Notes: generated by a model from the sequence alone, not told the origin. Numbered from the stretch's first letter, positions 16,756-64,000 are shown. The stretch is 64,000 nt of DNA from Candidatus Yanofskybacteria bacterium (GCA_016185545.1 JACPNJ010000005.1:79013-143012), one strand, 5' to 3'. A program made the numbers and translations.

Positions 16756-16763
16756 CTTGTTTG

Positions 16764-16791
16764 TTTCTAGTTTCTAGTTTCTAGTTTCTAG
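16764..16791. repeat. (TTTCTAG)x4 heptamer array immediately upstream of the murG start codon
   Basis: tttctagtttctagtttctagtttctag then T-run; 8 nt from ATG 16755. Confidence 0.9.
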
Positions 16792-16830
16792 TTTTTTTAA
16801 CCAGACGCCAGCAATAGAACTAGTGACTAA

Positions 16831-19763: not shown

Positions 19764-19843
19764 CTAGTTGCTAGTTGCTAGTTGCTAGTTGCTAGTTAAA
19801 GAACAATCAAACAAAACTAAAAACTAGAAACTAAAAACTAGAA
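19764..19843. repeat. (CTAGTTG)x~5 followed by (CTAAAAACTAGAAA)x2 tandem arrays, immediately upstream of the MFS-like gene start
   Basis: ctagttgctagttgctagttgctagttgctagtt ... ctaaaaactagaaactaaaaactagaaact. Confidence 0.85.
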
Positions 19844-19844
19844 A

Positions 19845-21119
19845 CTACTTAATCTGCGGCAACCCAAACCCTGATGCATTATCATCCCCAAGGGGTGATA
19901 GATCAGTTGCTAATAAGTGCAAAAAGTCACGGGTAGTCGTCATCGGGTCGGTAACTGCTGATTGCCAGTATTTAGCCGCTAATCCGGCTACAAAAGGCGA
20001 AGCCATAGAAGTCCCTGAAAGTATCACGTAACTGCCGTTATTCCATGTTGATTCAATATATTCGCCCGGTACGGCAAATTCAATATCGCGATCCTCAACA
20101 ATCCAAGAGGTGGAATCTGAGTTGGTGCCTCGTGAACTCCAGTTAGTTACGGTTATAGATTGGTCAATGGCGCCCACCGCTACAACCGAAGCATAAGCGG
20201 CTGGATAATCCACACTGTTGGGAAATGGCCCGTCATTGCCCGCGGCCGCCACAAGCAGAACTCCCTTAAACGAGGCGTAGTTGACGGCATCGCGTATTAG
20301 CGATGATTCTTGATCTGAACCGAAACTCATATTTACCACATTAGCTCCCTGGTCAGCCGCCAAACGCAGGGCTACGGCAATATCATCAGCGTAACAAGAA
20401 CCATTGGTTCCGCAAACTTTATAAGCAAAAATATTAGCTTGAGGCGCAACTCCGTAAATACCCCTGCCATCAGCACCGGCATTAGCCGCTATAATCCCGG
20501 CAACATGAGTACCGTGGCCATTTCTATCATCGCATTTACCGTCAATAATCGGAAAGCGTGAATTTGTAAAATCCTTGCATTGAACAATGCGCTCGGCTAA
20601 ATCCGGGTGTGAAACATTAACTCCCGTATCCAAGACGGCCACATTTGCATCCGCACCACCGAAAGTAGAGGTAATCAAGGAATCGTTGTATATTTTTTCG
20701 ATTCCCCATGGCGTCTGGTCAGACGGTAAATATCTGACAGTACCGCCCTTGCCTTTTGTTGCTTTTGGTACAAAAATTTTGGTTGGTGCCGGAGTTTGAA
20801 TATCTGAAACTTCGGGCGTTGGTTTAACTGATGAATCTTGGTTCGGTTGTTCGATAGCCAATGGGTCTTCAGGTAAAATTTGCAGTACGGCAACAGGTTC
20901 AATTTCTACTCCAAAAATTTTGGCCAACCGCAATTGAAAATCAGAAGCATCGGTAGTGAAACCGTTATCAAAATTATGCCTTACCCCAAGAGCATTTTTC
21001 CAAAAACCCTTGGTTGACTTAACAAAATACCTGCCATTGTCGGCAGCATGAGCGGTAGGCAAAAATACCAAAAAAAACGTTAAAAGCAAGCAAAAAACCA
21101 GTTTTTTAGTAATATTCAT
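19845..21119 (-). CDS. secreted subtilisin-like serine protease (S8)
   Basis: Signal peptide; catalytic triad motifs VLDTGV, HGTHVAG, GTSMASP. Confidence 0.88.
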   Translation of the reverse strand: MNITKKLVFCLLLTFFLVFLPTAHAADNGRYFVKSTKGFWKNALGVRHNFDNGFTTDASDFQLRLAKIFGVEIEPVAVLQILPEDPLAIEQPNQDSSVKPTPEVSDIQTPAPTKIFVPKATKGKGGTVRYLPSDQTPWGIEKIYNDSLITSTFGGADANVAVLDTGVNVSHPDLAERIVQCKDFTNSRFPIIDGKCDDRNGHGTHVAGIIAANAGADGRGIYGVAPQANIFAYKVCGTNGSCYADDIAVALRLAADQGANVVNMSFGSDQESSLIRDAVNYASFKGVLLVAAAGNDGPFPNSVDYPAAYASVVAVGAIDQSITVTNWSSRGTNSDSTSWIVEDRDIEFAVPGEYIESTWNNGSYVILSGTSMASPFVAGLAAKYWQSAVTDPMTTTRDFLHLLATDLSPLGDDNASGFGLPQIK

Positions 21120-21232: not shown

Positions 21233-22645
21233 TTAGGCGAGCAATACCTTTCTCGTGCTAATTTTGTGGCTGTTTATGCTTATCAGCGCCAACGCCATCC
21301 AAAAAATTAAACTCCCCTGCTGAGAGGTCCAGAGAAAATGGTCAAAAATGCCAACAAGCAAAAATAAAAAACTAAAAATGAAAAATAAGAAACTGAAAAG
21401 TTTCTTAAAATCGGCGCAACGAATAAAATGCCAAAAGCTAAAAAATAAAAACAACAGGAAGACACTAAAACCAATAAATCCGGTTTCGCTCGCAATCAGT
21501 AAGTAAATATTGTGGACCGGTTGGTAGGCGGTTGCCGGCAAATGTTTATATTTAAACATGAAATCAGGCACGAATTGGCCGATACCAATGCCCAGTAATG
21601 GATGGGAAACAGCCACGGATTCGGCAATTTTATTGTAAAAAACTCTCTCGGAAAAGGCTGGATCTTGTCCCGAAATATGAATACGAGAATTAACTTGCGG
21701 CCAATAAATGAGAGAAAATACAGTCGCAGCAATAACCGATACTACAAAAATTTTAAAAATTTTTTGTTTAAGAATTAAATCCCGACGAAACTCTTTTTTA
21801 AAAAAAACGGCTAAAAATCCGGCTAATGTGCCCAAAACCCAAAGCCCGACAACCACTCGCGAAAAAGTAGAAAAGAGAGCAAAAAGCAAAATAATATAAA
21901 CAAACAGCAATAAACCATCCTTAGTTCTTTGGACTTCGGGCGGGTTCTTTTTTGTATCTCGATGTAAAAAGTAAAAACAAAGTGCAAAGATAGTTGTAAA
22001 AAGCCAAGCGGCAAGTATGTTGGGATGCGGGGTAGTCCCATAGGCGCGTAGGTATTTTTCGCCGCCGGCAAAAAATATTGCAACTCCGGTAGTATTCACC
22101 GATAGCGGACTCTCGCCAAGCAATCGCAGACTAATACTCCCCTGCTTGAGATATTGGACGATACCGATGACGGCCTGAAAAAGACCGGAAGCGATAATAA
22201 TTACCAAAACGGTGCGAAATTGAAAAACTTTGCCAAAATTAGATTTAAGGTAAAAATAAAACCCGATAAATTCCGCCAATTTGAGCAATTGGTAAAAAGA
22301 TAAGCCGACAATTCGTGAGTTAAAAATTGAAATCGCCGAAATTACGAAAAAAATTACCAGCCAGAATGTAGAAAATTTTAAAATTTGAAATTTGGGCTTT
22401 AAAAATTCATTTGAAATTTGAAATTTGAAATTTGAAATTTTCCAACTGCCCGCCATGATTCTTATTATCCAAAAAACAAATAATGTCACCAAAAGAATAT
22501 CTGTGCCATAAAGGTATGTGTTAGTCCACTGATTAAACGGCCGGGTCCACTCATATAAAATCACCCGTGCCTGCACCGGCACCGCAAAGATCAGTAGATA
22601 AAAAACGGCGGATTCAAGTTTCTTAAATAGGTATTGACTTTGCAT
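21233..22645 (-). CDS. O-antigen ligase/polymerase-like polytopic membrane protein
   Basis: 470 aa, >10 TM helices; Wzy_C-like loop; contains a heptamer array. Confidence 0.45.
   Translation of the reverse strand: MQSQYLFKKLESAVFYLLIFAVPVQARVILYEWTRPFNQWTNTYLYGTDILLVTLFVFWIIRIMAGSWKISNFKFQISNEFLKPKFQILKFSTFWLVIFFVISAISIFNSRIVGLSFYQLLKLAEFIGFYFYLKSNFGKVFQFRTVLVIIIASGLFQAVIGIVQYLKQGSISLRLLGESPLSVNTTGVAIFFAGGEKYLRAYGTTPHPNILAAWLFTTIFALCFYFLHRDTKKNPPEVQRTKDGLLLFVYIILLFALFSTFSRVVVGLWVLGTLAGFLAVFFKKEFRRDLILKQKIFKIFVVSVIAATVFSLIYWPQVNSRIHISGQDPAFSERVFYNKIAESVAVSHPLLGIGIGQFVPDFMFKYKHLPATAYQPVHNIYLLIASETGFIGFSVFLLFLFFSFWHFIRCADFKKLFSFLFFIFSFLFLLVGIFDHFLWTSQQGSLIFWMALALISINSHKISTRKVLLA
22375..22441. 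repeat. (GAAATTT)n heptamer array inside the membrane protein gene
   Basis: aaatttgaaatttg ... gaaatttgaaatttgaaatttgaaattt; encodes KFQISNFKFQ.. Confidence 0.8.
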
Positions 22646-28894: not shown

Positions 28895-30316
28895 CTATAA
28901 TTCGAATGATTCGCCCTCAACTGGCGCTACGGCTTCAATGCCATATTTTTCGTGAATTAGATTAGCGAGGGTGCGGGCGGATTCGTCTTCGCCTTGAACG
29001 ACAAAGACTTTTTTTAGATTGCCCGCACCGCCGCCTTGAACTGTTGAACCGCCAACCCACTTGATGAGACTTAGCTGATCGGCATGGGCGGAATAAGCTG
29101 ACAGGTTTTCTATATGGCACTTGACTGGCACCGTTTGGCCCATGATTCTGACTTCTTTTTCGCCCCTTTGAATGCGCCGGCCCAAACTGCCGTCAACTTG
29201 GTAACCGACAAAAAGTATCGTGCTGTTTGTATCCGGTAAATAACGCATTTCGTGATGCAAAATCCTGCCACCTTGGCTCATGCCTGAACCGGCAATTATA
29301 ATCTTAGGCGCCGGCACGTTATTTATCGCTTTTGATTCTTCGACGGCGGTTGTGAGTTTTAAACCCGGGAAATTAAATACGTCGTCACCGGAACCGATCA
29401 AATACGCCGTCTCTTTATTAAAATATTCGCGGTGTTTTTGGTATACAGCGGTCATTTTATTGGCGAGGGGGCTGTCAACAAACACCGGTACCCGTGGAAT
29501 TTTATTTTCATTGAAAAGCCCGTTTAATTCATGCAGAAGCTCTTGCGTGCGCTCAACGGCAAATGAGGGTATCATCAGCACCCCGCTTCGCTTGATTGTG
29601 TCCTCAATTACCGAAATCAGCTTACTTCTTCTCTCCTTTCTGCCCTCATGCACTCGATCACCATAAGCCGATTCAATAACAATATAGTCGGCATTTTTAA
29701 TTTTTTCGGTCGGTCGCAGAAGCGGCGTCGGCGGATTGCCGAGGTCGCCAGAGAAGAAAATCTTTCTGGTACCAGAAAGATTTTCTTCTCTGGCTTGGTA
29801 ATTGGTAATTGGTAATTGGTAATTGGTTCGCCATTGTATTTCTACAATTGCCGAACCCAGTATATGACCTGCGTCATGGAAAATTGCAGTAATCCCCTCC
29901 AGTTCAATCGGTTCATCATAAAAAACCCCCTCCACAAGCGACATCAGCCCGTCCAGATCCTCCTGTATAAATAATGGCTCATGTCCCATCTCTTTAGCTT
30001 CATCCAAAATCTTATTCAAATTATCAGGAAGTGCGACGGCCATCAGGTCGCGGGTGGCAGTGGTCGTGTAAACTTTGCCGCGGAAACCGTCTTTGTAAAG
30101 TTTCGGCAAACGCCCGATGTGGTCAATATGGCTGTGGGTAATAAAAACATATTTAATCTCTGCGGGATTATATTTGAATTGACCATAATTCAATTCTTCG
30201 GCATATCTTGTGCCTTGATTCAAGCCGCAATCTACGAGTATTTTGGTATGGCCGTGTTCGAGTAGATAATTAGCTCCGGTAACGGTACGAGCACCACCAT
30301 AAAAAGTTATTTTCAT
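28895..30316 (-). CDS. RNase J-like beta-CASP metallo-beta-lactamase ribonuclease
   Basis: HSHIDHIG motif; MBL plus beta-CASP plus RNA-specificity-like C-terminus; contains a heptamer array. Confidence 0.8.
   Translation of the reverse strand: MKITFYGGARTVTGANYLLEHGHTKILVDCGLNQGTRYAEELNYGQFKYNPAEIKYVFITHSHIDHIGRLPKLYKDGFRGKVYTTTATRDLMAVALPDNLNKILDEAKEMGHEPLFIQEDLDGLMSLVEGVFYDEPIELEGITAIFHDAGHILGSAIVEIQWRTNYQLPITNYQAREENLSGTRKIFFSGDLGNPPTPLLRPTEKIKNADYIVIESAYGDRVHEGRKERRSKLISVIEDTIKRSGVLMIPSFAVERTQELLHELNGLFNENKIPRVPVFVDSPLANKMTAVYQKHREYFNKETAYLIGSGDDVFNFPGLKLTTAVEESKAINNVPAPKIIIAGSGMSQGGRILHHEMRYLPDTNSTILFVGYQVDGSLGRRIQRGEKEVRIMGQTVPVKCHIENLSAYSAHADQLSLIKWVGGSTVQGGGAGNLKKVFVVQGEDESARTLANLIHEKYGIEAVAPVEGESFEL
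29797..29827. repeat. (GGTAATT)x4 heptamer array inside the RNase J-like gene
   Basis: ggtaattggtaattggtaattggtaattgg encoding ..NYQLPITNYQ.. Confidence 0.85.
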
Positions 30317-30368: not shown

Positions 30369-30400
30369 TTCAATAACCAACCGCAGGCCTGCCCGCCGAA
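30369..30400 (-). promoter_or_regulatory. 5' leader hairpin cccgcc-TGCGCCGAGGCTTC-ggcggg upstream of the RNase J-like gene
   Basis: Same loop and opposing stem arms as the uvrB copy at 42553. Confidence 0.4.
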
Positions 30401-30564
30401 GCCTCGGCGCAGGCGGGAATTTTCTTTGTTTTAAGCTATTTTCCGTGCTGTGCATCCGTCAATTTGGTCAGATTATAGAAAATGTCATGTGGACAAAAAT
30501 TTGACAAATTATTACATGCATGCTAACCTTACGACAGAATCAACCAGTTTCTAAGGAGGTGGCT

Positions 30565-30922: not shown

Positions 30923-31558
30923 TCATGCAGTTTTTTTGCTTATTGGTTTCATTTCAAAACTGATATACCTCTCACCGAAAACTTCTTTTAACCTTTCTCC
31001 TAATCTCTTATCGCCTTCAGGATATTTACCTTCCTTAGCATGATTAGCCCCAACAATCAGTAAGTATTTTCCCGGCGTCTGTTCATAGCGTCGCTGAAAA
31101 TTGATAAACATATCTTCGTCTCGGGATTCTCCTCTTAGAAAATATCTTTCATTTTTGCGTTTTGATGTTTCTTGATACTCCCCTTCTTTCGTTTTTGACG
31201 AATCGAAACTGATAACTCCTTTTCCGATCTCCTTTACTTTATCGAAGATTTTTAGTAAATCTCTTATACTTTTACCTTCCTTCTCTGCTCCAGCGAAGAA
31301 ATCTTCCAATGTTTTATCCACCTCGCCACTGGCAAGATATTTATCAATCGCTTCTTGATAATCAACCGGCAACTCAACAAATATCTGATTTATCTGGGAA
31401 CCAAACCTATCCAGAAAATTCAAAATCGTTTCGCCGTGCTTACCATGAAATGTCTCTCCTAAAACAACTACATCTCGCCTCTCAAACAAATTTTCGGGAA
31501 ATTGTTCGGCGTTTTCGAGATTAAATTGTTCTCTTTTTATTCTCTCCATGTTTTTCAT
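30923..31558 (-). CDS. hypothetical protein
   Basis: 211 aa; no recognisable domain; preceded by the conserved leader element. Confidence 0.5.
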   Translation of the reverse strand: MKNMERIKREQFNLENAEQFPENLFERRDVVVLGETFHGKHGETILNFLDRFGSQINQIFVELPVDYQEAIDKYLASGEVDKTLEDFFAGAEKEGKSIRDLLKIFDKVKEIGKGVISFDSSKTKEGEYQETSKRKNERYFLRGESRDEDMFINFQRRYEQTPGKYLLIVGANHAKEGKYPEGDKRLGERLKEVFGERYISFEMKPISKKTA

Positions 31559-31567
31559 ATTTCACGC

Positions 31568-31676
31568 CCCATGACACTTCTTATCCTCCTTCGCTACCTC
31601 CTTCGCCAAGGCTTCGGAAGGTCAAAGAAAGCTACGGAAGGATTGCGAGATGTCACTTACCGTGACATCTCTTATA
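31568..31676 (-). promoter_or_regulatory. ~110-nt conserved 5' leader element (copy 1), with 10-bp hairpin gagatgtcac/gtgacatctc and GCCAAGGCTTCG-loop hairpin
   Basis: About 95% identical to 60697..60805 in the same orientation; both abut start codons of minus-strand genes. Confidence 0.6.
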
Positions 31677-31706
31677 TTTCTTACACATTGTGCTTGGCTC
31701 TTAGGA

Positions 31707-32540: not shown

Positions 32541-32653
32541 TTACAAAATCATTGCTCTAATGTAAATCTCAAAATGTAAAATGACAGTTAAAAATTTGAA
32601 ATTTTACGCTTTAATTTTGCATTTTGATTTTTAAATTTTGAATTTAGTTCGCC

Positions 32654-33732: not shown

Positions 33733-35007
33733 TTATGAAAGCAATTCCAAAACTATTTCTTTATCTGACCATGAAATCTTTTTCCCTCCAGCCACAGCCA
33801 TTAAATTCTCGGACCCCTTGCCGGTTATTACGACTATATCATCAACTTGAGCTAGAACTAAGGCTTTTCTGATTGCCTCTTTGCGGTCTAGAATTTTGGT
33901 ATAGTTTTCAGTTTGCGAGAACCCCGAAGCAATTTGTTCCAAAATTGCCTCGGGGTTCTCGTCATAAGGGTCCTCGTTCGTCAAAATCACCTCATTGCAA
34001 TATTTGGCCGCGATCTTGCCAAACTCAGGCCGCTTCCATTTGTCCCGACCGCCGCCGGCTGCCCCCAATACACAGATGAGTTTATTACGAGGTTCAACCT
34101 CAACAGAAATATGGGGTTGGTTTCTTAGGGTTTTGTAAACCAGTTCCAATGAATCCGGCGTGTGAGCATAATCAATAATTACATTAAAACCTTTCGGCGC
34201 ATGAATGATTTCCATTCTGCCTGGTATTGATTTGATTGAATTTAGCGACGCTACCGCTTTATTCATATCAAGATTATAAGCATGCGCTACGGCCAATGCC
34301 GCCAAGGCGTTATATTCGTTAAAATCCCCCAGCAATTTTAAGTTAAGTTTTTCATTTTTCGTTTTTAGCTTTTCACTTGTTATCATCCCCCATTTTTTGC
34401 CATATGTTACTTTGTGTTGCGCCGTAAAATTGGCAAATTTTTCAAAATACGGATCGTCAATGTTAAGTACGTGGATATTGCCAGTTTTCAGAAAAAGTTT
34501 CTGCTTGGCGGCCATATAATTTTCAAATGAGCCATGGCTTTCCAAATGTTCACGGTGCAAATTGGTAAAAACGGCACAATCAATTTTGACACCAGCCAGA
34601 CGATTTTGGACAATACCCTCTGAAGTGGCTTCGAGCACCACGTATCGACAACCGGCTTTTTTTGCCTGATATAAAAATTTCTGCAACTTGAGTCGCCCCG
34701 GCAAAGTCATTTTTAGCGTATTGGGCCATGTCCGTTCTTTTATCTTAAACCCGAGCGACCCCACTGCCGCCACCGACAGCCCCTGCTCCTCAAAAATCTT
34801 GCTTATCATATAAACCGTCGTTGATTTGCCCTTAGTCCCGGTAACTGCTATCACCCTCATCGCCTGCGACGGAAAACCATAAATCGCTGCCCCCAGCATT
34901 ACCAGCCCCCAATGATAAACCGGCTGTGCCAATTTAAAAATCCGCCGCGGTAACACGGCGCGCCCCAAACCTAGCAATTTGTTTAGTAATCGGTTCTCTT
35001 GAAACAC
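33733..35007 (-). CDS. Mur ligase family protein (MurE/MurF-like)
   Basis: VIAVTGTKGKSTT P-loop; Mur ligase middle and C-terminal domains. Confidence 0.6.
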   Translation of the reverse strand: MFQENRLLNKLLGLGRAVLPRRIFKLAQPVYHWGLVMLGAAIYGFPSQAMRVIAVTGTKGKSTTVYMISKIFEEQGLSVAAVGSLGFKIKERTWPNTLKMTLPGRLKLQKFLYQAKKAGCRYVVLEATSEGIVQNRLAGVKIDCAVFTNLHREHLESHGSFENYMAAKQKLFLKTGNIHVLNIDDPYFEKFANFTAQHKVTYGKKWGMITSEKLKTKNEKLNLKLLGDFNEYNALAALAVAHAYNLDMNKAVASLNSIKSIPGRMEIIHAPKGFNVIIDYAHTPDSLELVYKTLRNQPHISVEVEPRNKLICVLGAAGGGRDKWKRPEFGKIAAKYCNEVILTNEDPYDENPEAILEQIASGFSQTENYTKILDRKEAIRKALVLAQVDDIVVITGKGSENLMAVAGGKKISWSDKEIVLELLS

Positions 35008-40833: not shown

Positions 40834-41862
40834 TTAAAAAATTTTCCTGGCTAACCGGTAAACCAAATACCAAAATTTTGAAATCGGCAGGTCAAATGAG
40901 CCGGGGTATTCAATGGTATTGCCGCCCCAGCCGAGTTTGAAACGGGTAACGCCGGGCCATTTGCGCGGGTCAATACCCCAAAAATCATATCGTTTTAGAC
41001 CTTCCGCTTTTAATTGCTTCATTATGTGCCAGTGCAAGGCATAAGGAGCCATAAGTGCTCTGTTTTCGTAATCAGAAGCACCGTGTAAATAGTAACCAGC
41101 ATCGCCGTAAGTAAGAATTAAGGCCGTGGCGATCGGTTTGTCATGAGTTTTGTCGAAGGGTTTGTTGTTATGCTTGGCAAAATATAATTTGGTTTGAAGT
41201 CCGTTATAATCCAACAATTTTCTGTAATAGTCATCCGGGTGCGGATTAAATCTATCCCGTTTGGCGGTTTTTTTAAGCAATTTTAAGAAAGTTTCAACTT
41301 TTGCACGATATTCTGCACGACATGCGATGTCGTGCTTCTGCACGACATCGCATGTCGTGCAAGTTACCTCTTCGCCCACGATTATGCCACGTTTATCGGC
41401 AACACCGATATTGTAGCGGGTCTTGTGATGCATAGCCGCGAGTAATTCGTTTTCGCTTTTTGTTAAATCAACAACAACCGTCTTCGACGGTTGGATTTCT
41501 TTTTTTGATTTTTTAAAACCTGCCTCAACCAGCGCTTGGGCAATGCTATCAATAAGCGGTTCGGTTTTTATAAAAATTGACTTGCGTTTTTTGCTTTCTT
41601 CGCGCAACCACCTTACGAAATTCGCCACTGGATTCTTAAATCCGCCTATCATCTGATTGAAGTCAATCTCCGGCCCATGCGGTATATAAAGATAGCTTTT
41701 CCCAAACGGTAAATTGTGTTTAATTATTTTGGCGCTTATTACAGGAGGTTGAGCCTCTTTACTTAGAGGCTCAACCTCTAAGTTTTCCGGGTATTCCAAA
41801 ACCTCCCGCCCCAGCGATTTCTGAAATTTCGTCCATTCTCTTGACTGAAGAAATGAGGTCAT
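40834..41862 (-). CDS. FemAB-family peptidoglycan bridge-forming aminoacyltransferase
   Basis: LQSREWTKFQ N-terminus; YALHWHIMKQLKAEGLKRYDFWGI...FKLGWGG C-terminus; carries two different palindromic insertions. Confidence 0.7.
   Translation of the reverse strand: MTSFLQSREWTKFQKSLGREVLEYPENLEVEPLSKEAQPPVISAKIIKHNLPFGKSYLYIPHGPEIDFNQMIGGFKNPVANFVRWLREESKKRKSIFIKTEPLIDSIAQALVEAGFKKSKKEIQPSKTVVVDLTKSENELLAAMHHKTRYNIGVADKRGIIVGEEVTCTTCDVVQKHDIACRAEYRAKVETFLKLLKKTAKRDRFNPHPDDYYRKLLDYNGLQTKLYFAKHNNKPFDKTHDKPIATALILTYGDAGYYLHGASDYENRALMAPYALHWHIMKQLKAEGLKRYDFWGIDPRKWPGVTRFKLGWGGNTIEYPGSFDLPISKFWYLVYRLARKIF
41311..41360. repeat. palindromic element family C: 25-bp unit ttctgcacgacatgcgatgtcgtgc followed by its inverted-core copy, in frame in the FemAB-like gene
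   Basis: gcacgacatgcgatgtcgtgc is self-complementary except the centre; encodes TCTTCDVVQKHDIACRAE. Confidence 0.8.
41745..41783. repeat. family A palindromic element (GAGGTTGAGCCTC-N8-GAGGCTCAACCTC) in frame in the FemAB-like gene
   Basis: Encodes ..NLEVEPLSKEAQPP.. Confidence 0.8.
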
Positions 41863-42452: not shown

Positions 42453-42457
42453 GGAAA

Positions 42458-42488
42458 GAATCTAGAATCTAGAATCTAGAAACTAGAA
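42458..42488. repeat. (GAATCTA)x3 + GAAACTA heptamer array abutting the ruvA start
   Basis: gaatctagaatctagaatctagaaactagaatt. Confidence 0.85.
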
Positions 42489-42552
42489 TTAAGAGTTAAT
42501 TTAATCATAAGACGACTGGCTGTTTTTTGCAAAAGAATGTTTAAGTTATCCT

Positions 42553-42580
42553 CAAAATTCCCGCCTACGCCAAGGCTTCG
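42553..42580 (+). promoter_or_regulatory. 5' leader hairpin cccgcc-TACGCCAAGGCTTC-ggcggg 25 nt upstream of uvrB
   Basis: Same loop as 30369 and as the leader elements at 31596 and 60729. Confidence 0.4.
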
Positions 42581-42604
42581 GCGGGCAAGCAAACCATAAC
42601 ATAA

Positions 42605-51298: not shown

Positions 51299-51303
51299 AA
51301 ATC

Positions 51304-51402
51304 AGGTGTCAGGTGTCAGGTGTCAGGTGTCAGGTGTCAAAGTTTAGAAGTTATTTTATCTTATACTCTGTAACCTGTAACCTGTAACCTGTAACCTGTA
51401 AC
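51304..51402. repeat. (CAGGTGT)x5 and (CTGTAAC)x5 heptamer arrays filling the 100-bp intergenic region
   Basis: caggtgtcaggtgtcaggtgtcaggtgtcaggtgt ... ctgtaacctgtaacctgtaacctgtaacctgtaac; the first abuts the start at 51298, the second abuts the stop at 51402. Confidence 0.9.
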
Positions 51403-52517: not shown

Positions 52518-52775
52518 CCCGCCCTCTATGCACTTTAATAGCTTAGAAGGTGGGGTAAATAACTACTACCATGCTCGCTACACTACGCTTGCTGCGCGTG
52601 GGCATTTATTTAAAGATACCATATAGTTTCTAACGGGTCAATCACTTAACATATCAACATATAACTATGGAGTATGACGTGTCAACCCCGTACGAGGCAG
52701 AGGCACGCTGCGTGCCCTCGCGGCCTCGTTCGGGGTCAACCCCGAAATGAACTTTCTGGAAAATCTACTATGGGG

Positions 52776-53705: not shown

Positions 53706-55055
53706 TCAGAATAGCCATCTCCTCTTTTCTAGCTTTTGCCCTATAAATAATCTCAAAAATGATTTAGTCACGACTATTGAGCTGAATAAACTCATTAATA
53801 CTCCAATGCCCAGTGTTAAAGCAAAACCTTTGACTACCGAGATTGAAAAAATATACAAAATAATGGCACCCAGTATAGTCGTCACGTGACTGTCGCGTAT
53901 TGAATACCAGGCCCGATGGAAACCTTCGTTAAATGACTGCGGCAATGATTTACCTGCCTTAAATTCCTCGCGAAAACGGGCAAAAATTAAAACATTGGCA
54001 TCAACGGCCATGCCCAGAGATAGTATGAATCCGGCAATACCAGCCAGGGTCAGCGTGACTGGTACCAGTTTATAAATAGCCAGAACGATAATGGTATAAA
54101 TCAAAAGCGCCAGAACTGAAACCACGCCGGGAAGACGATAAAAAAGTATCATGAAAATTGCTACCAGCAATAAGCCATAAAGACCGGCCCGGAGAGATCT
54201 TTGGAGTGATTCCTGCCCCAATGATGGACCGATTGTCTGCTGTGAAATGAGCGTTATTGGAACCGGCAAAGCGCCAGCATTAAGATTATTGGCAAGATCC
54301 CTCGCTTCTTTTATCGTAAATCCACCGCTGATAACGGCGCGACCGCCCTGTATTTCGCTTTGGACTGTTGGCGCGCTTATGACCAAACCGTCAATATATA
54401 TGGCGACTCGTTTACCGAGATTGCGTCTGGTGATTTCAGCGAATAACTTAGCACCATCATCGTTCAGTTCCAGTGATATTTGCGGCTGTGATGTGGTTTG
54501 ATCAAAGGCAAGCTGGGAACGTTTGAGATGCTTGCCGGTCAGACCGGTTGATTGAAAATACGGGTCTTCGCCAAGCTGTTGGCCTTTTTGCTGGGCATCA
54601 AGGATTTTTTGTGATTCTTCCTGTGTTCGTTCTTCCTTGAATTCTAGAAACGGCGTTTGGCCTATCATTTGGATTGCTTGGTTAACATCGCTGATACCGG
54701 CCAGCTCCACAACCAATCTGTCTCTGCCCTCTATCTGAACTAACGGTTCGGCTACACCAAAAAGATTGACTCTGCGCTCTATTACATCGCGCACACCGGC
54801 CATGGCATCACCAGCATCCTGTCCGCTACTGTCGGAAAGATCGGCTTGATAAACCAAATGGGTACCACCAAGAAGGTCTAAACCGAGACGAAATGACGGA
54901 ACTTTAAACATATGCGGAACTTTGAACTTTGAACTTTGAACTTTGAGTTTAGCGTTAACGATGTCCGCCCCCTTGTCCCATCCTTGCGGATACACAAAAA
55001 CCGCCAAAAACAGTGCGGCGGCCAAAATTATCAGCGGTGTAAATTTACGAAGCAT
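53706..55055 (-). CDS. secD: protein translocase subunit SecD
   Basis: 449 aa; SecD architecture (LLGGTHLVY... and C-terminal TMs). Confidence 0.88.
   Translation of the reverse strand: MLRKFTPLIILAAALFLAVFVYPQGWDKGADIVNAKLKVQSSKFKVPHMFKVPSFRLGLDLLGGTHLVYQADLSDSSGQDAGDAMAGVRDVIERRVNLFGVAEPLVQIEGRDRLVVELAGISDVNQAIQMIGQTPFLEFKEERTQEESQKILDAQQKGQQLGEDPYFQSTGLTGKHLKRSQLAFDQTTSQPQISLELNDDGAKLFAEITRRNLGKRVAIYIDGLVISAPTVQSEIQGGRAVISGGFTIKEARDLANNLNAGALPVPITLISQQTIGPSLGQESLQRSLRAGLYGLLLVAIFMILFYRLPGVVSVLALLIYTIIVLAIYKLVPVTLTLAGIAGFILSLGMAVDANVLIFARFREEFKAGKSLPQSFNEGFHRAWYSIRDSHVTTILGAIILYIFSISVVKGFALTLGIGVLMSLFSSIVVTKSFLRLFIGQKLEKRRWLF
54917..54950. repeat. (GAACTTT)x4 heptamer array in the SecD N-terminal region
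   Basis: Encodes KFKVPHMFKVPSF. Confidence 0.85.
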
Positions 55056-59147: not shown

Positions 59148-59672
59148 CTAGTCTGATTCTTCGCCACACATTTCAGCGACGGCGGACAAAATTTCCTCGG
59201 GTATCGGAATCTTTTTACCAACCGGACTGACCCCGGGATACCGCCATGCGGATATTATCCGCATTTTTGGTTGCTGGTGGTTGGTTTCTAGTTTCTGGTA
59301 ATTTTTAAATTTTGCATTGCCATTTAAATTGATTCGCATGCGCTTTTCGTTAAGCGTATCCGCATCGTTTTGATTTTTGCCTGCCCCGCCGTTGGCGTAC
59401 GGCCTGGGTAATTTTGCTTGCCCCGTAGGGTCGCGAAGCGACTCCTTCGGGGAATTTTGAATTTCTTGAAACATCACCCATATCTCCTGTTTCTTGCTTG
59501 ATGTCGGCTGCATAACGGCTATAGTTTTGGGCGCAACTCCGTCTTCTCTCCTTTTGGGAAACCTGACGATCCTTTTTATCAAACTCTCTGATATCCCATA
59601 ATAAAGCATCTTGTCTTTGACATGATTAGTCCATTGGTATTTATCATTATCTTTCGGGAGGTTAAATCGCAT
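59148..59672 (-). CDS. DUF4258-like small protein split in frame by a ~75-aa repeat-derived insertion
   Basis: N-terminal YQWTNHVKDKMLYYGISESLIKRIV and C-terminal KMRIISAWRYP match DUF4258 ends; the middle carries element B peptide NSPKESLRDPTGQAK. Confidence 0.4.
   Translation of the reverse strand: MRFNLPKDNDKYQWTNHVKDKMLYYGISESLIKRIVRFPKRREDGVAPKTIAVMQPTSSKKQEIWVMFQEIQNSPKESLRDPTGQAKLPRPYANGGAGKNQNDADTLNEKRMRINLNGNAKFKNYQKLETNHQQPKMRIISAWRYPGVSPVGKKIPIPEEILSAVAEMCGEESD
59378..59470. repeat. palindromic element family B (ccccgtagggtcgcgaagcgactccttcgggg) plus partial duplicate
   Basis: Same 32-nt hairpin as in secA at 62633. Confidence 0.8.
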
Positions 59673-59696
59673 AGAGCTTTCACGCCTATTACATTA

Positions 59697-60251
59697 TTAA
59701 TCGTCAGAATAAATTATTTTTCCGGCTTCAAAGATGTGGAATGCGCCGGTTTCTTCGGAAACCGTGTACACAGTTGTATTTTGAAAAATATACGATGAGA
59801 CAATGGCAAAGAGATGCCTGGAGTGGACTTTTTGTCGGAATCCAAATTGTTCGGATAAGTCTTTGAAACGGCCAGGATTGATTTTATCGGCAACCGTGCG
59901 CGGCCTTAAGCCTTCAAGGATTATGCCGGAATGCGCGAACTTGCCAGTCGCATCTATTAAGATCGCGCCATCAAAACCAACTGTGGATTCGACTTCACGA
60001 TACCATTCAGCGTGGTTTTCAATATCATTGATATTTATGCGGTATGCGACAAAAATATCCTGCGTGGCATCGGAAATGTCTGTATATTCTTGCCACTTAT
60101 CTTGCCAGCCAAGTATTATAAAAAGACCAAAATTTTTCTGATGGGCCATTAAATTCAAAACTAGCTCAGCTGTTTTCATTTTCAAGGAAATCGGCAAGAC
60201 AATTTCCGATTTCTTGAAAATCTCGATTAATTCAAAAATCTTTTTTTCCAT
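59697..60251 (-). CDS. DAC (diadenylate cyclase) domain protein, soluble, divergent (RHR to RHL)
   Basis: GFDGAILID (DGA motif), HSRHLFA (RHR region), VSEETGAFHIF (SEETG) in canonical order; no TM helices. Confidence 0.55.
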   Translation of the reverse strand: MEKKIFELIEIFKKSEIVLPISLKMKTAELVLNLMAHQKNFGLFIILGWQDKWQEYTDISDATQDIFVAYRININDIENHAEWYREVESTVGFDGAILIDATGKFAHSGIILEGLRPRTVADKINPGRFKDLSEQFGFRQKVHSRHLFAIVSSYIFQNTTVYTVSEETGAFHIFEAGKIIYSDD

Positions 60252-60699
60252 TATTTATTTTTTTAGAACGGTCGGAAACTAACCAGGAGCTTGATTGTAT
60301 CTTGCCACCACGGCCAATGTTGAAAATTATTTTGCAGCCAAGTTTGTTACAAACAGCAGCTTCTGGAATATCATTTGCGGTTCTATCTCCCCCATTGGCA
60401 AAAATGTGGGGTCGGATTTTTTTAAGTTCGGCGCATACGCTCATATCCGCCGGCTCCGCCGGATGACTGGTCAAAATTACCTGATCAACTCCCCTTATTG
60501 TTTCCAGTATTTCCTTGCGTTCTTTTTCAGACATAAACACATAACCCTTTTTCTTTCTGAGCCAGTTATCGTTATTCAAAATAACAACCAATTTGTCGCC
60601 AAGTTTCCGGGCTTCCTGAAAAAGCCGGACATGGCCGACATGAATTGGGTCCCACCCGCCACTTACCGCTACTATTATTTTTTTCTTTTTATTTCCCAT
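60232..60699 (-). CDS. cytidylyl/adenylyltransferase-family (HIGH motif) nucleotidyltransferase
   Basis: VAVSGGWDPIHVGHVRL; 155 aa; 20-nt overlap with the DAC gene. Confidence 0.75.
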   Translation of the reverse strand: MGNKKKKIIVAVSGGWDPIHVGHVRLFQEARKLGDKLVVILNNDNWLRKKKGYVFMSEKERKEILETIRGVDQVILTSHPAEPADMSVCAELKKIRPHIFANGGDRTANDIPEAAVCNKLGCKIIFNIGRGGKIQSSSWLVSDRSKKINNGKKDF

Positions 60700-60805
60700 G
60701 ACACTTTTTATCCTCCTTCGCTACCTCCTTCGCCAAGGCTTCGGAAGGTCAAAGAAAGCTACGGAAGGATTGCGAGATGTCACTTCCCGTGACACTTCTA
60801 CTTTT
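60697..60805 (-). promoter_or_regulatory. conserved 5' leader element (copy 2); supplies SD aggagga and the ATG of the nucleotidyltransferase gene
   Basis: About 95% identical to 31568..31676. Confidence 0.6.
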
Positions 60806-60973
60806 TCAATAACCAGCCGCAAGAGTTTTTCTTTATTTTGAGCTGTTTTTAAAACCGCGTACCCACTGAAATAGCCATAAAATAGAAAATGTCATGCGGG
60901 CTGCCTATTGATTCTTTTCTGTTATTTTGCCATTATACTACCAGGTCGTTAAATCTTTACAGGAGGCGAAACA

Positions 60974-61450
60974 ATGCGACATTCGACTTACCAGCAATTG
61001 ACTGATTTGCAGCGCAAGGCGCTCGATTCAGCGGAAGAAGCTCTCCAAAATTCGTACAATCCGTATTCCAACTTCTTTGTCGGCGCAGCTCTTTTTGCTG
61101 AAGATGGCACGCTTGTCTCTGGAACGAATTTCGAAAATGCGGCGTACGGTTCAACAATCTGTGCGGAACGGTCGGCAACTTTTCGGGCCAATGCTATGGG
61201 TTTACGGCGTTTTTCTGGCATTGCAATCATCGCCCGTGGTTCTAATTTTGACACGACAGAAGTTACTGGACCCTGCGGTAGTTGCCGCCAAGTGCTCTAC
61301 GAGCTCGCTCAGTTATCTGGCACCGAATTCGAAGTCGTTCTTTCAACAACCAAGAAGGACAAACTTATCATCGCTTCCATCAAAGAACTTTTGCCGCTTG
61401 GTTTCGGTCCGCTGGACCTCGGAATTGATATCGCAAAATATCAGAAGTAG
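60974..61450 (+). CDS. cdd: cytidine deaminase
   Basis: CAER and PCGSCRQ zinc motifs; RBS aggaggcg. Confidence 0.9.
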   Translation: MRHSTYQQLTDLQRKALDSAEEALQNSYNPYSNFFVGAALFAEDGTLVSGTNFENAAYGSTICAERSATFRANAMGLRRFSGIAIIARGSNFDTTEVTGPCGSCRQVLYELAQLSGTEFEVVLSTTKKDKLIIASIKELLPLGFGPLDLGIDIAKYQK

Positions 61451-61492
61451 CCTTCTTCTCGGAGTCACAAAGTGGCTCCTTTTTTTATCATT

Positions 61493-64000
61493 TTATCTCC
61501 CATGACATCTTTTATATTTTTTACCTGACCCACAAAAACATGGGGCATTCCTTCCTATTCTCGCATGGTCGAGAATGTTTGATGGCCGACTTGATTCTTG
61601 CTCCATTTGTTTTGAGACAGCTGACCGACTAACTGCCAAATCCTCACGTTTTTCTTCAATTGCAACAGTTTTTGGCTGTTGGACAAATCCAACCTTAAAA
61701 ATTAAACCCGCCACTTGCGCTCCAATGGCCTCCTGCAGTTGAGTGAACATTTTTTGGCCTTCTATTTTATATTCAACTAACGGATCGCGCTGGCCGTAAG
61801 CACGCAGGCGCACCGAGTCGCGAAGATACTCCATCTGTTCAAGATGATCAACCCACAGCTCGTCTATCACGCGTAGTAAAACCATTTTCTCAATATGTCT
61901 CATTGATTCCACGCCTGTTTGCTGTTCACGCTGAATATAAACTTCATCAATCAAACCATGCAGAAATTCGGATAATTTGCCTGGCCCATTCGATGAGTTC
62001 AGGTCAAGCTCTTGTGGTTTTGCGATTTCGTTTAATTTAGCGTGCAAATCGCCAACCATCGGCATCAGAGTTTTAACACTCTCGGCTATTTCTTCGGTAT
62101 TATATCCCCCCGTTTCGCTTAAAGCGTGGAATTGCATAATTTTATCAATATGTTCGTGAATATAATTATTTATTTTGTCCTTGACGCCTTCTCCCCCCAG
62201 TATTTCCTTGCGCAAACTGTAAATCGCGGTTCTGTGGCGATTCATTACATCGTCATATTCTAGGACGTATTTTCGGATATCAAAGTTGTTGCCTTCAATT
62301 TTGGATTGGGCTTGCTCTATGGCGCGGGAAACGAAACGGTTTTCAATAACATCGTCTTCGCTTACGCCAAGCCGATCCATCAAGTTTTTAAGACGATCGC
62401 CGCCGAATATGCGTACCAGCTCATCTTCGGTGGATACAAAAAACTGCGAAGAGCCCGTGTCGCCCTGCCGGCCGGAACGTCCACGCAATTGATTATCTAT
62501 GCGCCTTGCTTCGTGCCTCTCCGTCCCAATCACATGTAAACCTCCTAATTCCTTTACTCTTTTATTTTCTTCCTCCCAATTTTTATATTCTTCATTTAAA
62601 AGTTTATCTTCTTCAATTTTAAATTTTGCCTGCCCCGTAGGGTCGCGAAGCGACTCCTTCGGGGAATTTTGAATTTTGAATTTGCTAGGCGCATGCCCGC
62701 CGAGCATGATATCAACACCCCTGCCGGCCATATTGGTTGCCACCGTAACAGCGCCGAGCCGACCGGCTTGAGCAATAATTTCACCCTCTTGTTCGTGGTT
62801 TTTGGCATTTAAAACTTTGTGCGGTATACCTTCACGGTTGAGATGCACCGATAAAAGTTCATTTTTAATAATCGCCGCCGTACCAACAAGTACCGGTTGA
62901 CCTTTAAGATGCCGCCCCTTGATTTCGGCAACAATTGCTCTGAATTTACCCGCTTCTGTTTTATATATACGATCGGGTAAATCAGCACGTATCATTTGTT
63001 TGTTGGTGGGAATAGTAACGACATCCAGTTTGTAAACCTTGTGAAACTCTTCAGCTGATGTCTGCGCCGTGCCGGTCATACCGGTAAGTTTTTTATACAA
63101 GCGAAAATAATTTTGGAAAGTAATCGTGGCATAAGTTCGGGATTCTTTCTGGACATATACCCCCTCTTTGGCTTCAATCGCTTGATGCAATCCCTCCGAC
63201 CATCGCCGCCCCGGCATTAAACGGCCGGTAAATTCATCTACTATGATTACTTCACCGTCTTTTACAACGTAATCCTTGTCGCGGTGGAAAAGAATTTGCG
63301 CTTTCAACGCCTGTTCAAGATGGTGAACATAACGAGTACCGCCTTCCTCGTAGATGTTTTTGAGATTCAGCACGCTTTCAACTTTTTCAATGCCTTTTTC
63401 GGTAATTGACACGGCTTTCAATTTTTCATCAACATTATAGTCTTCGTTTTCGTGGAGACGTGGAACAATTTTGGCAAAAGTTTCGTAAAGCTTAGTTGAA
63501 TCAGAATCCGGTGCAGAAATAATTAGCGGGGTTCTGGCTTCATCTATTAAAATGGAGTCAATTTCGTCAACAATGGCATAATTATGCCCTCGGGTCTGCG
63601 CAACTTGCCCCAATTCATATGCCATGTTGTCCCGTAAATAATCAAAACCGAATTCGTTATTGGTCCCATAAGTAATGTCGGCTTCGTATGCTTCTCGCCT
63701 AGTAACCGGACGCAGAAATTCATGAACAACCCTGAATGCCCCTGTTTCATCGCGTATTTCGTCTAATTTTCGTGATTTATCATTTTCTTTTTCACTTTTG
63801 AATTTGAAATTATCATTTTGAATTTTGAATTTTGAATTTTGAATTTCGCTATGCAGTGGATCATAAACGTAACTCATTTCATGGTTCAAACATCCGACAT
63901 TCATTCCGAGAAGATGGTATATCTGCCCCATCCATGCCGCATCGCGCCTTGAGAGATAATCGTTCACGGTAACTATGTGGACCCCATTAGAAGTAGCCGC
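61493..64000 (-). CDS. secA: preprotein translocase ATPase SecA (N-terminus beyond window edge)
   Basis: DEAD motor, GGLHVIGTERHE, C-terminal zinc finger CFCGSGKKYKRCHG; ORF open to position 64000. Confidence 0.92.
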   Translation of the reverse strand, partial: AATSNGVHIVTVNDYLSRRDAAWMGQIYHLLGMNVGCLNHEMSYVYDPLHSEIQNSKFKIQNDNFKFKSEKENDKSRKLDEIRDETGAFRVVHEFLRPVTRREAYEADITYGTNNEFGFDYLRDNMAYELGQVAQTRGHNYAIVDEIDSILIDEARTPLIISAPDSDSTKLYETFAKIVPRLHENEDYNVDEKLKAVSITEKGIEKVESVLNLKNIYEEGGTRYVHHLEQALKAQILFHRDKDYVVKDGEVIIVDEFTGRLMPGRRWSEGLHQAIEAKEGVYVQKESRTYATITFQNYFRLYKKLTGMTGTAQTSAEEFHKVYKLDVVTIPTNKQMIRADLPDRIYKTEAGKFRAIVAEIKGRHLKGQPVLVGTAAIIKNELLSVHLNREGIPHKVLNAKNHEQEGEIIAQAGRLGAVTVATNMAGRGVDIMLGGHAPSKFKIQNSPKESLRDPTGQAKFKIEEDKLLNEEYKNWEEENKRVKELGGLHVIGTERHEARRIDNQLRGRSGRQGDTGSSQFFVSTEDELVRIFGGDRLKNLMDRLGVSEDDVIENRFVSRAIEQAQSKIEGNNFDIRKYVLEYDDVMNRHRTAIYSLRKEILGGEGVKDKINNYIHEHIDKIMQFHALSETGGYNTEEIAESVKTLMPMVGDLHAKLNEIAKPQELDLNSSNGPGKLSEFLHGLIDEVYIQREQQTGVESMRHIEKMVLLRVIDELWVDHLEQMEYLRDSVRLRAYGQRDPLVEYKIEGQKMFTQLQEAIGAQVAGLIFKVGFVQQPKTVAIEEKREDLAVSRSAVSKQMEQESSRPSNILDHARIGRNAPCFCGSGKKYKRCHGR
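62624..62690. repeat. family B palindromic element inserted in frame in the secA variable linker (encodes NSPKESLRDPTGQAK)
   Basis: Direct sequence identity to 59420..59452. Confidence 0.8.
63815..63847. repeat. (ATTTTGA)x4 heptamer array in the secA C-terminal linker
   Basis: Encodes KFKIQNSKFKIQN. Confidence 0.8.

Follow-up and report, generated by a model that had tools for sequence, protein, structure and literature searches.

The window analysed here is a 64,000-nt stretch of DNA from Candidatus Yanofskybacteria. Two genes on its minus strand, secA and a small conserved gene, carry the same GC-rich hairpin within their coding sequence, and further hairpins lie beside one of these copies and between genes elsewhere in the window:

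59148..59672, minus strand: small conserved gene of 174 aa, for which 279 relatives reach E <= 1e-3
59380..59408, plus strand: a further, different GC hairpin (CCTGCCCCGCCGTTGGCGTACGGCCTGGG), tandem to the 36-nt unit, encoding ..PRPYANGGAG.. and forming its own stem in a 106-nt fold
59417..59452, plus strand: 36-nt hairpin unit (CTTG variant plus 32-mer) in the small conserved gene; covariance model 65.5 bits
61493..64000, minus strand: secA, 5' end outside the window; five SecA Pfam domains
62615..62628, plus strand: left part of an AATTTTN heptamer tract, interrupted by the secA unit and encoding KFKI (comparison with L049/L050)
62629..62664, plus strand: 36-nt hairpin unit (CCTG plus 32-mer) in secA; covariance model 65.7 bits
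62665..62684, plus strand: right part of the heptamer tract (AATTTTG AATTTTG AATTTG); TRF period 7, 2.9 copies
30387..30423, plus strand: GC hairpin between genes (GCCTGCCCGCCGAAGCCTCGGCGCAGGCGGGAATTTT), member of a sister family, with a GCCTGCCC head and GGGAATTTT tail in common; copies elsewhere
42554..42590, minus strand: second intergenic copy of the 30387..30423 hairpin, in inverted orientation
52686..52735, plus strand: intergenic hairpin whose outer stem (CCCCGTA...TTCGGGG) is shared but whose inner hairpin is different and longer; weak covariance-model match

Hairpin copies and their host genes

The 32-mer CCCCGTAGGGTCGCGAAGCGACTCCTTCGGGG occurs in two exact copies on the plus strand (59421-59452 and 62633-62664), with no third copy in the window at up to 3 mismatches and 0 matches in 100 shuffles. 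The repeat common to both sites extends to 55 nt (59410-59464 versus 62622-62676) at 98% identity, the sole mismatch being the Y of GCYTG. Both copies lie in frame in minus-strand open reading frames (ORFs) and are read as ..QNSPKESLRDPTGQAK.. in the same frame, which bears out the preliminary description of a 32-mer with shared flanks in secA and the small gene. The inserted unit consists of CCTG plus the 32-mer, that is, 36 nt or 12 codons. Folded as sense-strand RNA, the two copies reach -21.5 and -21.7 kcal/mol (z-scores -4.4 and -3.7).

The secA ORF matches the Pfam profiles SecA_DEAD, PP_bind, P-loop_SecA, SecA_SW and SEC-C, all above threshold (E 1e-84 to 7e-9), and its protein matches an NCBI SecA entry from Candidatus Yanofskybacteria (P0001) at 100% identity. 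The insertion site is a variable linker with GRGVDIMLGG on one side and GGLHVIGTERH on the other. Where long-linker SecA relatives (P0028, P0043) have KFKIEN-L-KFKI, the window has KFKIQN-SPKESLRDPTGQA-KFKI. At the DNA level, secA of L049 and L050 contains an uninterrupted AAAATTN heptamer tract of four full units and one degenerate unit; the heptamer number is equal in the window, which has exactly 36 nt more between heptamer units. The linker-length comparison with relatives that had been proposed earlier thus gives a clean excess of 36 nt. The AATTTTG flanks in secA belong to a heptamer tract older than the insertion and are not necessarily part of the element. No target duplication is evident at this site. 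The mRNA of the unit, secA being on the minus strand, is CCCCGAAGGAGUCGCUUCGCGACCCUACGGGGCAGG, encoding (S)PKESLRDPTGQ(A). Junction-spanning peptides predicted by translation are ...IQNSPK / DPTGQAK or DPEGVASRPYGAGK.

Of 119 further SecA relatives retrieved, not one has the hairpin peptide, and the nearest syntenic relatives (L051, L219) are without both the secA and the small-gene insertion. The secA orthologues with an empty site are only 63-67% identical to the window secA, and among near-identical genomes no recent polymorphism for its presence or absence was observed. The preliminary description would have been contradicted by SecA orthologues that share the peptide without any nucleotide repeat elsewhere in their genomes; what is found is the absence of the peptide from SecA relatives and the presence of the nucleotide element in other genes and genomes.

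The small protein (174 aa) is longer than most of its relatives (100-140 aa). The unit sits in a hypervariable loop flanked by strands 62-71 and 136-146. This loop varies in length among relatives, from about 5 residues to over 70, and is predicted at pLDDT 50-65 without secondary structure; the orthologues of L051, L052 and L219 lack the hairpin unit. The insert had been described as splitting a DUF4258-like domain. It does lie between conserved N-terminal and C-terminal blocks, both intact, but the DUF4258 label stays below the Pfam gathering threshold of 25 bits, both for the small protein with the insert removed (12.7 bits, E 0.17) and for the best relative, P0133, which covers the whole profile (17.5 bits, E 0.005). 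Furthermore, no PDB fold matched the small protein at E < 1.

Two related claims were not sustained. The supposed partial duplicate at 59378-59410 proved to be a different hairpin unit, CCTGCCCCGCCGTTGGCGTACGGCCTGGG (59380-59408), which has only its CCTGCCCC head in common with the 36-nt unit, is separated from it by one AATTTTG-like unit and has no other copy in the DNA examined. Likewise, the core of the mreBC-flanking inverted repeat (7470-7511), thought to contain a related hairpin, gave no match to the hairpin covariance model at E <= 10. The sister-family hairpin has copies of 97-100% identity in L171, L209, L024 and L040.

Distribution, structure and orientation in CPR genomes

Patescibacteria, also known as candidate phyla radiation (CPR) bacteria, account for a large part of the diversity of bacteria, with genomes of about 1 Mb that are usually called streamlined and repeat-poor. 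The exact 32-mer was found at 48 loci of other CPR metagenome assemblies, in records of both the Microgenomates group and the Parcubacteria group. Intact host genes elsewhere encode UvrC, uL10, uS2, PheRS, MltG and FemAB, among others, so that the claim of a family of palindromic elements in frame inside unrelated genes not only stands but extends to many other genes and genomes. In PheRS, the unit occupies the same loop in L023 and L046 with different flanks, and in orthologous membrane proteins of L022 and L039 the units lie 5 nt apart and are read in different frames. That the 32-mer is nearly identical in records labelled as different CPR phyla is difficult to account for unless horizontal transfer or strong constraint is supposed, and this weighs against the explanation proposed below. 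In some other genomes, the hairpin forms the apex of a palindromic element of about 230 nt, more MITE-like and absent from the window locus.

A metagenome scan revealed a superfamily with CCTG-CCCCGTA...TTCGGGG ends, a strongly covarying inner stem and a length of mostly 33 or 36 nt, with a retained T.T mismatch and bulged T. The invariance of the ends is partly built into this set, since the search pattern used them; covariance-model finds, made without any end pattern, nevertheless kept CCCCGTA/TTCGGGG around a different inner stem. Across 13 pairs and 30 sequence types, 98.5% of cells pair, a percentage inflated because the set was also filtered by folding energy; shuffles give 75% and slid controls 37-64%. 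Double changes occur at seven inner pairs, and the covariation score is 0.571 versus 0.122. G-T-A is invariant and followed by G in 22 of the 30 sequence types; this GTAG motif lies inside the outer CCCCG/CGGGG stem, with its G, A and G paired in the model. Immediately 5' of the unit, positions -2/-1 show a weak preference for TG (T in 53/96 and G in 58/96 copies, 55-60%).

Orientation and frame follow a consistent pattern. In ORFs of at least 180 aa containing the 32-mer, the coding strand is opposite in 20/20 copies, for which the chance probability is 0.6^20, or ~4e-5, with open frames allowed for. The frames read are PKESLRDPTGQ in 11 of these copies, PEGVASRPYGAG in 8 and PRRSRFATLRG in 1. 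In the metagenome sample, where 36-38 of 96 copies lie inside long ORFs, 36 are opposite and 4 the same; for clearly internal copies the figures are 22 and 3, those 3 being dubious. Intergenic copies lack this bias. The hairpin strand used in genes has no stop codon in any of its three frames, while the opposite orientation has TAG in one frame and, in the two remaining ones, gives peptides that contain Cys or are strongly basic. Of the copies inside ORFs, 32/36 have a length divisible by three, versus 36/54 elsewhere (Fisher p = 0.023). A unit that is 3n long and stop-free on one strand cannot break the host frame when inserted that way round.

Proposed explanation and its rivals

Taken together, both copies are probably REP/RPE-like selfish hairpin DNA of a Patescibacteria superfamily, tolerated in protein loops, a reading to which a probability of about two in three (0.68) is assigned. 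The 36-nt (12-codon) unit was inserted twice, each time into A/T-rich DNA coding for a loop: in secA it separates two units of the pre-existing AAAATTN tract, in the variable linker that belongs to the second nucleotide-binding domain, and in the small gene it lies within the hypervariable loop, beside a second, different hairpin unit. Being read through and presumably translated, it would add 12 mostly hydrophilic residues, and copies in the wrong orientation or in structured parts of proteins would be purged by selection. The unit may have been moved in trans by a putative enzyme recognising the base of the folded single-stranded hairpin, for which an HUH/Y1-type transposase is the obvious candidate. 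A tblastn search of the window and ~340 kb of related loci (L001-L052) with approximate IS608 TnpA and E. coli RAYT queries, which is a weak test, gave no Y1/RAYT homologue below E = 0.5. Flanking direct repeats occur at 12/96 copies; they may represent duplications of the target site, which would be at odds with a mechanism of the IS200/IS605 type.

A broader proposal is put forward tentatively, at somewhat short of an even chance: that Patescibacteria harbour radiation-wide, horizontally spreading, gene-dwelling hairpin transposons served by a putative mobilising enzyme. Their 3n length and stop-free strand would then be adaptations to coding sequence in genomes with almost no intergenic space, and they would contribute generally to inserted loops and longer proteins in this group.

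Conserved ends, a retained T.T mismatch and a retained bulged T around a covarying inner stem are also what a protein-recognised hairpin would display. The hairpin could thus be a functional nucleic-acid signal under positive selection and recruited into genes, for example a CPR protein or RNase site, a translation pause or an antisense terminator, and its identical sequence across distant lineages, the strictly fixed strand inside genes, the AAGGAG-like motif frequent on the sense strand and the T directly 3' of the hairpin in 70/96 copies agree with such a role. However, this is judged unlikely, as the hairpin is sporadic among orthologues, being absent from the 119 other SecA proteins and the nearest relatives, its hosts are unrelated housekeeping genes affected in variable loops, and it has no match in Rfam. 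A terminator fits poorly in particular: only 21/90 copies (36 in ORFs and 54 outside long ORFs) have five or more T among the 8 nt that follow the stem, both flanks are equally T-rich, and a consensus scan called no terminator on the hairpins.

Spread as a DNA uptake signal, with motif-bearing DNA preferred by competent CPR cells and fixed through recombination, would account for the lineage-wide identity without a transposase. CPR bacteria are believed to rely on taking up DNA, and both the conserved ends, identical in many lineages, and the negative transposase search (approximate queries, window plus ~340 kb) are compatible with it. Nevertheless, the density of 2 exact copies and about 4 relatives per 64 kb is low, known uptake signals occurring roughly once per kb; selection on a paired inner stem would be unexpected, and the insertions are clean 33- or 36-nt units, unlike the outcome of point-mutational convergence. 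These points make the uptake reading quite improbable.

It is less probable still that the insert goes untranslated through ribosome bypass or mRNA removal, in the manner of the GC-rich yeast mitochondrial 'byp' elements, an analogy suggested by a GC-rich, strand-specific hairpin within an A/T-rich coding context. Bypass would make a length divisible by three and open frames needless, so that the enrichment of 3n lengths in ORF copies over non-ORF copies and the stop-free strand count against it, and the secA site is without matched take-off and landing codons. Finally, it is scarcely credible that the element is an assembly artefact, or a linker peptide or hairpin of ancient origin passed on vertically: nothing beyond the repeat itself speaks for this, three frames are read, intergenic copies exist, close relatives are without the element, and the loci come from independent assemblies of many laboratories with unique flanks each time.

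Comparison with known systems

The selfish hairpin proposed here most resembles two groups of bacterial repeats. The Rickettsia palindromic elements (RPEs), reportedly treated by Ogata et al. in 2000, are said to lie in frame in intact, often essential genes, including those of DNA repair, and also between genes, and are read as selfish DNA tolerated in loops, as is the hairpin. They include the short CGTC-tagged RPE-4 and RPE-6 (PMC3733652). In-frame residence with the gene left intact is found here as well, in the full set of SecA domains, the conserved small-protein blocks and the UvrC, uL10, uS2, PheRS, MltG and FemAB hosts. However, RPE-1 measures 100-150 bp and RPEs are confined to Rickettsia, whereas the hairpin is 33-36 nt long, has other conserved ends and shares identical sequence types among many Patescibacteria lineages. 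Membership in a described RPE family was rejected for a 36-nt element of a Yanofskybacteria host; size and host set it apart, while its behaviour is RPE-like.

The GTAG-tagged REPs (repetitive extragenic palindromes), putatively mobilised by RAYT tyrosine transposases, are imperfect GC-rich palindromes of 20-40 bp with many sequence types differing in the stem, and the hairpin (32 nt, -21.5 kcal/mol) is likewise an imperfect palindrome of this size with a stem-loop. In REPs, the GTAG (or CGTC) tag is unpaired at one stem end, and intragenic copies are known in some species, e.g., Opitutus terrae (PMC3733652). The GTA(G) of the hairpin also adjoins a variable stem, but it is internal, partly paired and clamped by CCCCG/CGGGG. 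REPs are mostly extragenic and number tens to thousands per genome, whereas the hairpin appears, as seen from a 64-kb window, to have a low copy number and has a large intragenic, strand-fixed share with lengths in multiples of three. REPs are accompanied by a RAYT gene; none was seen in the window and L001-L052 with approximate queries.

Yeast mitochondrial GC clusters and byps are short, mobile, GC-rich hairpins of an A/T-rich genome that occur inside protein-coding genes, as the hairpin does. Byps are organellar and bypassed by the ribosome, so that frame need not be preserved; the hairpin, in contrast, preserves both frame and openness, which points to read-through. IS200/IS605-type transposition likewise involves a hairpin with a conserved base and mismatches, and the secA site shows no evident target duplication. 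Those elements, however, have two different hairpin ends and carry or need TnpA, whereas the present element is one hairpin, and the search (approximate query, window plus ~340 kb) yielded no TnpA. Their derivatives insert 3' of a fixed short target and do not duplicate it; here TG is only weakly preferred, and 12/96 copies have direct repeats. In-frame MITEs such as the Coxiella QMITEs resemble the hairpin as non-autonomous repeats that can add peptide segments (PMC5896051). With MITEs at 70-300 bp, bearing terminal inverted repeats and target duplications, a bare stem-loop of 33-36 nt is too short to be classed among them.

A literature search gave no description of such hairpin elements in CPR. 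The conserved ends and free inner stem provide a search model that is ready for use. If the family colonises essential genes (secA, uvrC, pheS and ribosomal protein genes) group-wide, part of the lineage-specific protein insertions of CPR and some assembly contig breaks would be explained, a sequence marker for horizontal exchange among CPR lineages would be available, and the hairpin would point to a putative hairpin-recognising enzyme, of a kind useful as a tool in other systems. On the same condition, the family would constitute a new, very small class within the world of REPs and RPEs.

The hairpin and its two host genes

The 32-mer CCCCGTAGGGTCGCGAAGCGACTCCTTCGGGG occurs exactly twice in the window, and no third copy with up to three mismatches was found there or in shuffled sequence. 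Its two copies and their hosts are as follows.

59148-59672, minus strand: small conserved gene, 174 aa
59380-59408: 29-nt hairpin within the small gene
59421-59452: 32-mer, copy in the small gene
61493-64000, minus strand: secA, 5' end beyond the window
62633-62664: 32-mer, copy in secA

The surrounding repeat reaches 55 nt at 98% identity between the two copies, each of which lies within a minus-strand ORF and encodes the identical peptide QNSPKESLRDPTGQAK. The mRNA strand of the repeat forms a bulged hairpin with a folding energy near -21.5 kcal/mol, far lower than shuffled sequences. Neither the hairpin nor the longer palindromic element had an Rfam match, whether gathering or permissive thresholds were applied. 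The in-frame hairpin shared by secA and the small gene, as put forward in the preliminary description, is confirmed by the two exact 32-mers and their common peptide; the finding is genuine and broader than could be told at that stage.

The secA host matched five Pfam domains, and its product is 100% identical to SecA of a metagenome-assembled Candidatus Yanofskybacteria genome. By comparing linkers through motif extraction in 120 retrieved relatives, it was found that most have a 37-residue segment between MAGRGVDI.LGG and GGLHVIGTERH, and a minority, including the window, a longer linker. The stretch carrying the unit is presumably SecA's variable insert in the second nucleotide-binding domain; some bacteria lack this insert, in agreement with the variation in linker length. 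The long-linker proteins P0028 and P0043 read KFKIEN-L-KFKI, and the window counterpart reads KFKIQN-SPKESLRDPTGQA-KFKI. In the DNA of these two relatives (L049 and L050) an AAAATTN heptamer tract is unbroken; window secA has an equal heptamer count, with the tract split by 36 additional bases. This makes the unit CCTG plus the 32-mer, or 12 codons. None of the three possible hairpin peptides occurred in the 119 other SecA proteins. A one-heptamer target-site duplication at secA was rejected by the heptamer count, the comparison orthologues being distant, and no target duplication was seen against the L049/L050 orthologues, which share only 63-67% identity. Elsewhere in SecA, the full protein (P0001) carries an additional 25-residue insert, GRGV[HPVRSLARDEVASPEDRGAATSNGV]HIVT, at residues about 120-150, just past window position 64000; among the 25 of 120 relatives with a matchable flanking motif there was no other carrier, and only P0036 had any insert there. 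In the nearest-relative SecA (P0002; secA of locus L219), the variable region at the N-terminus holds an in-frame palindrome headed by CCTGCCCGCC.

The small-gene ORF (174 aa) had no Pfam match. It is nevertheless a member of a real protein family, with 279 representatives at E <= 1e-3, mainly of 100-140 aa, in which conserved N-terminal (WTxH...EIWVMYQ) and C-terminal (RIISAWRYPG) blocks are separated by a loop whose length varies from about 5 to over 70 residues. In three syntenic relatives with the common gene order SecA ... DAC-like gene, small gene, cyclophilin, the orthologues measure 124-128 aa and lack both hairpins. The window gene contains two tandem hairpin units, namely the 36-nt unit and a different 29-nt hairpin; the latter, previously taken for a partial duplicate, has only the CCTGCCCC head in common with the former. 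In an AlphaFold model of the protein, the flanking strands were confident, and residues 72-135 had pLDDT values of 50-65 and no secondary structure. The assignment of a split DUF4258-like domain was not supported: Pfam scores were sub-threshold, and membership by fold was rejected since a PDB search with the model gave no significant match to a solved structure.

Distribution, orientation and structure of related copies

A survey covering one genome per species, in which variation was allowed at loop positions and unpaired bases only, recovered the 32-mer in 48 loci. Most have Patescibacteria names, among them lineages of the Microgenomates group (Levybacteria) and the Parcubacteria group; 'uncultured Gammaproteobacteria' is the label of four records, and a few are called just 'bacterium'. 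Two contexts were distinguished. In the first, CCTG plus the hairpin frequently sits in a genome-specific heptamer tract (ACATTTG, GGATTTG, GATTTTG), and in the second, a conserved intergenic palindrome of ~230 nt has the hairpin at its apex. In loci L018 (89-120 and 3345-3376) and L040 (261-292 and 3686-3717), from two other genomes, inverted copies of a conserved ~230-nt palindromic element with the 32-mer at the apex bracket 3.3-kb cassettes, which by eye encode one repeat-rich PD40-like protein in one case and an N6-adenine methylase with a partner gene in the other.

Outside the window, 18 copies of the first context, in 17 loci, lie within ORFs of >=200 aa. Pfam-confirmed hosts include UvrC, uL10, uS2, a FemAB-family protein, two phenylalanyl-tRNA synthetases, MltG/YceG and DUF7411, and a disulfide oxidoreductase-like and an Elp3-like protein were recognized by eye from translations. 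The copies in L045 and possibly L033 lie at the extreme 5' end of the ORF and may be leader-located. In the two PheRS genes the unit occupies one common loop with unrelated flanks, and in the orthologous membrane proteins of L022 and L039 the units lie 5 nt apart in different frames; both pairs argue for independent insertion at permissive sites over inheritance.

All 20 ORF-internal copies, including the two of the window, have the gene on the strand opposite CCCCGTAGGG. This coding strand is free of stops in all three frames, and the other has a TAG in one frame. The frames used were PKESLRDPTGQ (11 copies), PEGVASRPYGAG (8) and PRRSRFATLRG (1). A replication-direction bias behind this strand preference was rejected because intergenic copies of the first context mostly point the other way with respect to adjacent genes; selection acting on the message or the gene product thus explains it better than replication-linked insertion bias. 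The sense strand of the 32-mer type contains a Shine-Dalgarno-like AAGGAG, and in other types the GG with which the inner stem commonly begins hints at AAGGA-like motifs.

Covariance-model matches retained CCTG-CCCCGTA and TTCGGGG around differing inner stems. At least 120 metagenome stretches were found by these ends. The set considered here comprises 96 of the 122 matches listed, from low-GC contigs and with good folding, its ends being fixed by the search pattern and its members filtered on folding energy. Among the 96 copies, those in long ORFs were 36 opposite only versus 4 same only; clearly internal copies among the matches listed were 22 opposite versus 3 same, those 3 being doubtful. 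All three frames were occupied in the matches listed (16, 13 and 7 copies), where the commonest lengths were 33 and 36 nt, and lengths were a multiple of three in 32/36 ORF copies versus 36/54 others (Fisher p = 0.023). Over 30 distinct 36-nt types, the proposed structure was 98.5% paired, compared with 75% in shuffles and 37-64% with slid partners, and compensatory double changes were seen at seven inner pairs. Furthermore, the bulged T and one loop A, both free in the search pattern, were at least 90% conserved.

In the metagenome matches listed, 16 of 38 opposite-strand long-ORF copies are no more than 40 codons away from an ORF end, the 5' end for 11 of them (L102, L111, L130, L141, L181, L183, L187, L195, L198, L206, L210) and the 3' end for 5 (L114, L124, L150, L185, L200); many 'intragenic' copies may thus be located in leaders or terminal tails. 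In viral contigs the 32-mer was absent and evidence for phage carriage was not found; the relaxed end pattern gave 46 matches there, mostly in GC-rich contigs without the inner stem, that look like chance.

Insertion and alternative explanations

Sporadic distribution, unrelated hosts and a clean 36-nt gain together indicate that the elements are inserted selfish DNA. The survival of the host genes is accounted for by the 3n length and the stop-free strand, and the frame statistics point to translation of the unit by read-through. This would yield junction peptides such as DPEGVASRPYGAGK, or peptides with an ...IQNSPK end or a DPTGQAK start. The hairpin combines a sequence-specific base, bearing a mismatch and a bulge, with a free upper stem. 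Such an anatomy is recognised by enzymes acting on folded single strands, as in IS200/IS605 and in REP/RAYT (for REPs, PMC3733652). A Y1/RAYT homologue was not seen in the window and ~340 kb of related loci, a weak test on little DNA. Unit flanks are T-rich, with TG favoured immediately 5' and T immediately 3' in the metagenome matches listed, and 12 of the 96 copies listed, versus 2.5 expected, have flanking direct repeats of 7-11 nt, in many cases with an offset of 3-5 nt; these repeats could reflect either target duplication or a preference for heptamer tracts.

The idea of a selected RNA or DNA signal is disfavoured, since the element is present sporadically and in unrelated hosts, and has neither a terminator-like tail nor an Rfam match. 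As for an intrinsic terminator, a consensus scan made no call, and T-tracts 3' of the unit were not enriched over those 5' of it. Spread in the manner of an uptake signal is likewise disfavoured, given the low density and the paired inner stem, and the statistics on frame and length argue against ribosomal bypass of the insert. Both vertical inheritance and an artefact are excluded.

Other repeats of the window and comparison with known elements

Perfect or near-perfect period-7 tandem repeats, of many unit types, are unusually abundant in the window, which also holds other repeats.

3154-3184, 16763-16794, 18610-18637, 19764-19847, 22377-22440, 29795-29827, 32613-32645, 42457-42489, 51302-51402, 54917-54946, 63796-63846: period-7 repeats
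11470-11523 and 15408-15461, partial at 34082-34101 and 41759-41778: palindrome TAGAGGCTCAACCTC...GAGGTTGAGCCTCTA
30387-30423 and 42554-42590: intergenic hairpin GCCTGCCCGCCGAAGCCTCGGCGCAGGCGGG
7450-7595 and 9580-9725: 146-nt inverted repeat, 99% complementary
31551-31680 and 60678-60807: 130-nt direct repeat, 88% identical

Period-7 units include TAGTGAG, GTTTCTA, CTAGTTG, TCAGGTG, CTGTAAC and TTTTGAA, and sit in genes and directly upstream of gene starts. Heptamer-encoded low-complexity peptides of similar type vary across SecA orthologues, and hairpin units frequently occur within heptamer tracts. The palindrome is another intragenic family of the same genome, in frame in ORFs 10542-11930 and 14717-15625 (both minus strand) with the peptide RGSTSTRLSLYEVEPL in both. 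The intergenic hairpin is 97-100% identical in unrelated CPR contigs (L171, L209, L024, L040). The inverted repeat brackets ORFs 7605-8438 and 8474-9523, presumably mreBC as named in the preliminary description; the link drawn there to the hairpin was not borne out, the covariance model detecting no relation of its GC-rich core to the family. The arrangement of inverted elements around the L018 and L040 cassettes is reminiscent of this repeat. The direct repeat, immediately upstream of two minus-strand genes, holds its own GC hairpin CCTCCTTCGCCAAGGCTTCGGAAGG and could act for both as a common leader or promoter module.

No earlier description of such elements in Patescibacteria was found in the literature searched (full text). 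The kind of element is already known, since PMC3733652 records REPs and RPEs within genes of Rickettsia, Opitutus and further genera. Compared with these, the Patescibacteria unit is very small and a multiple of three, and an outer clamp surrounds its GTA(G) motif in place of a terminal unpaired tag. In addition, the intragenic share is high and strand choice strict, and identical sequence types span many Patescibacteria lineages.
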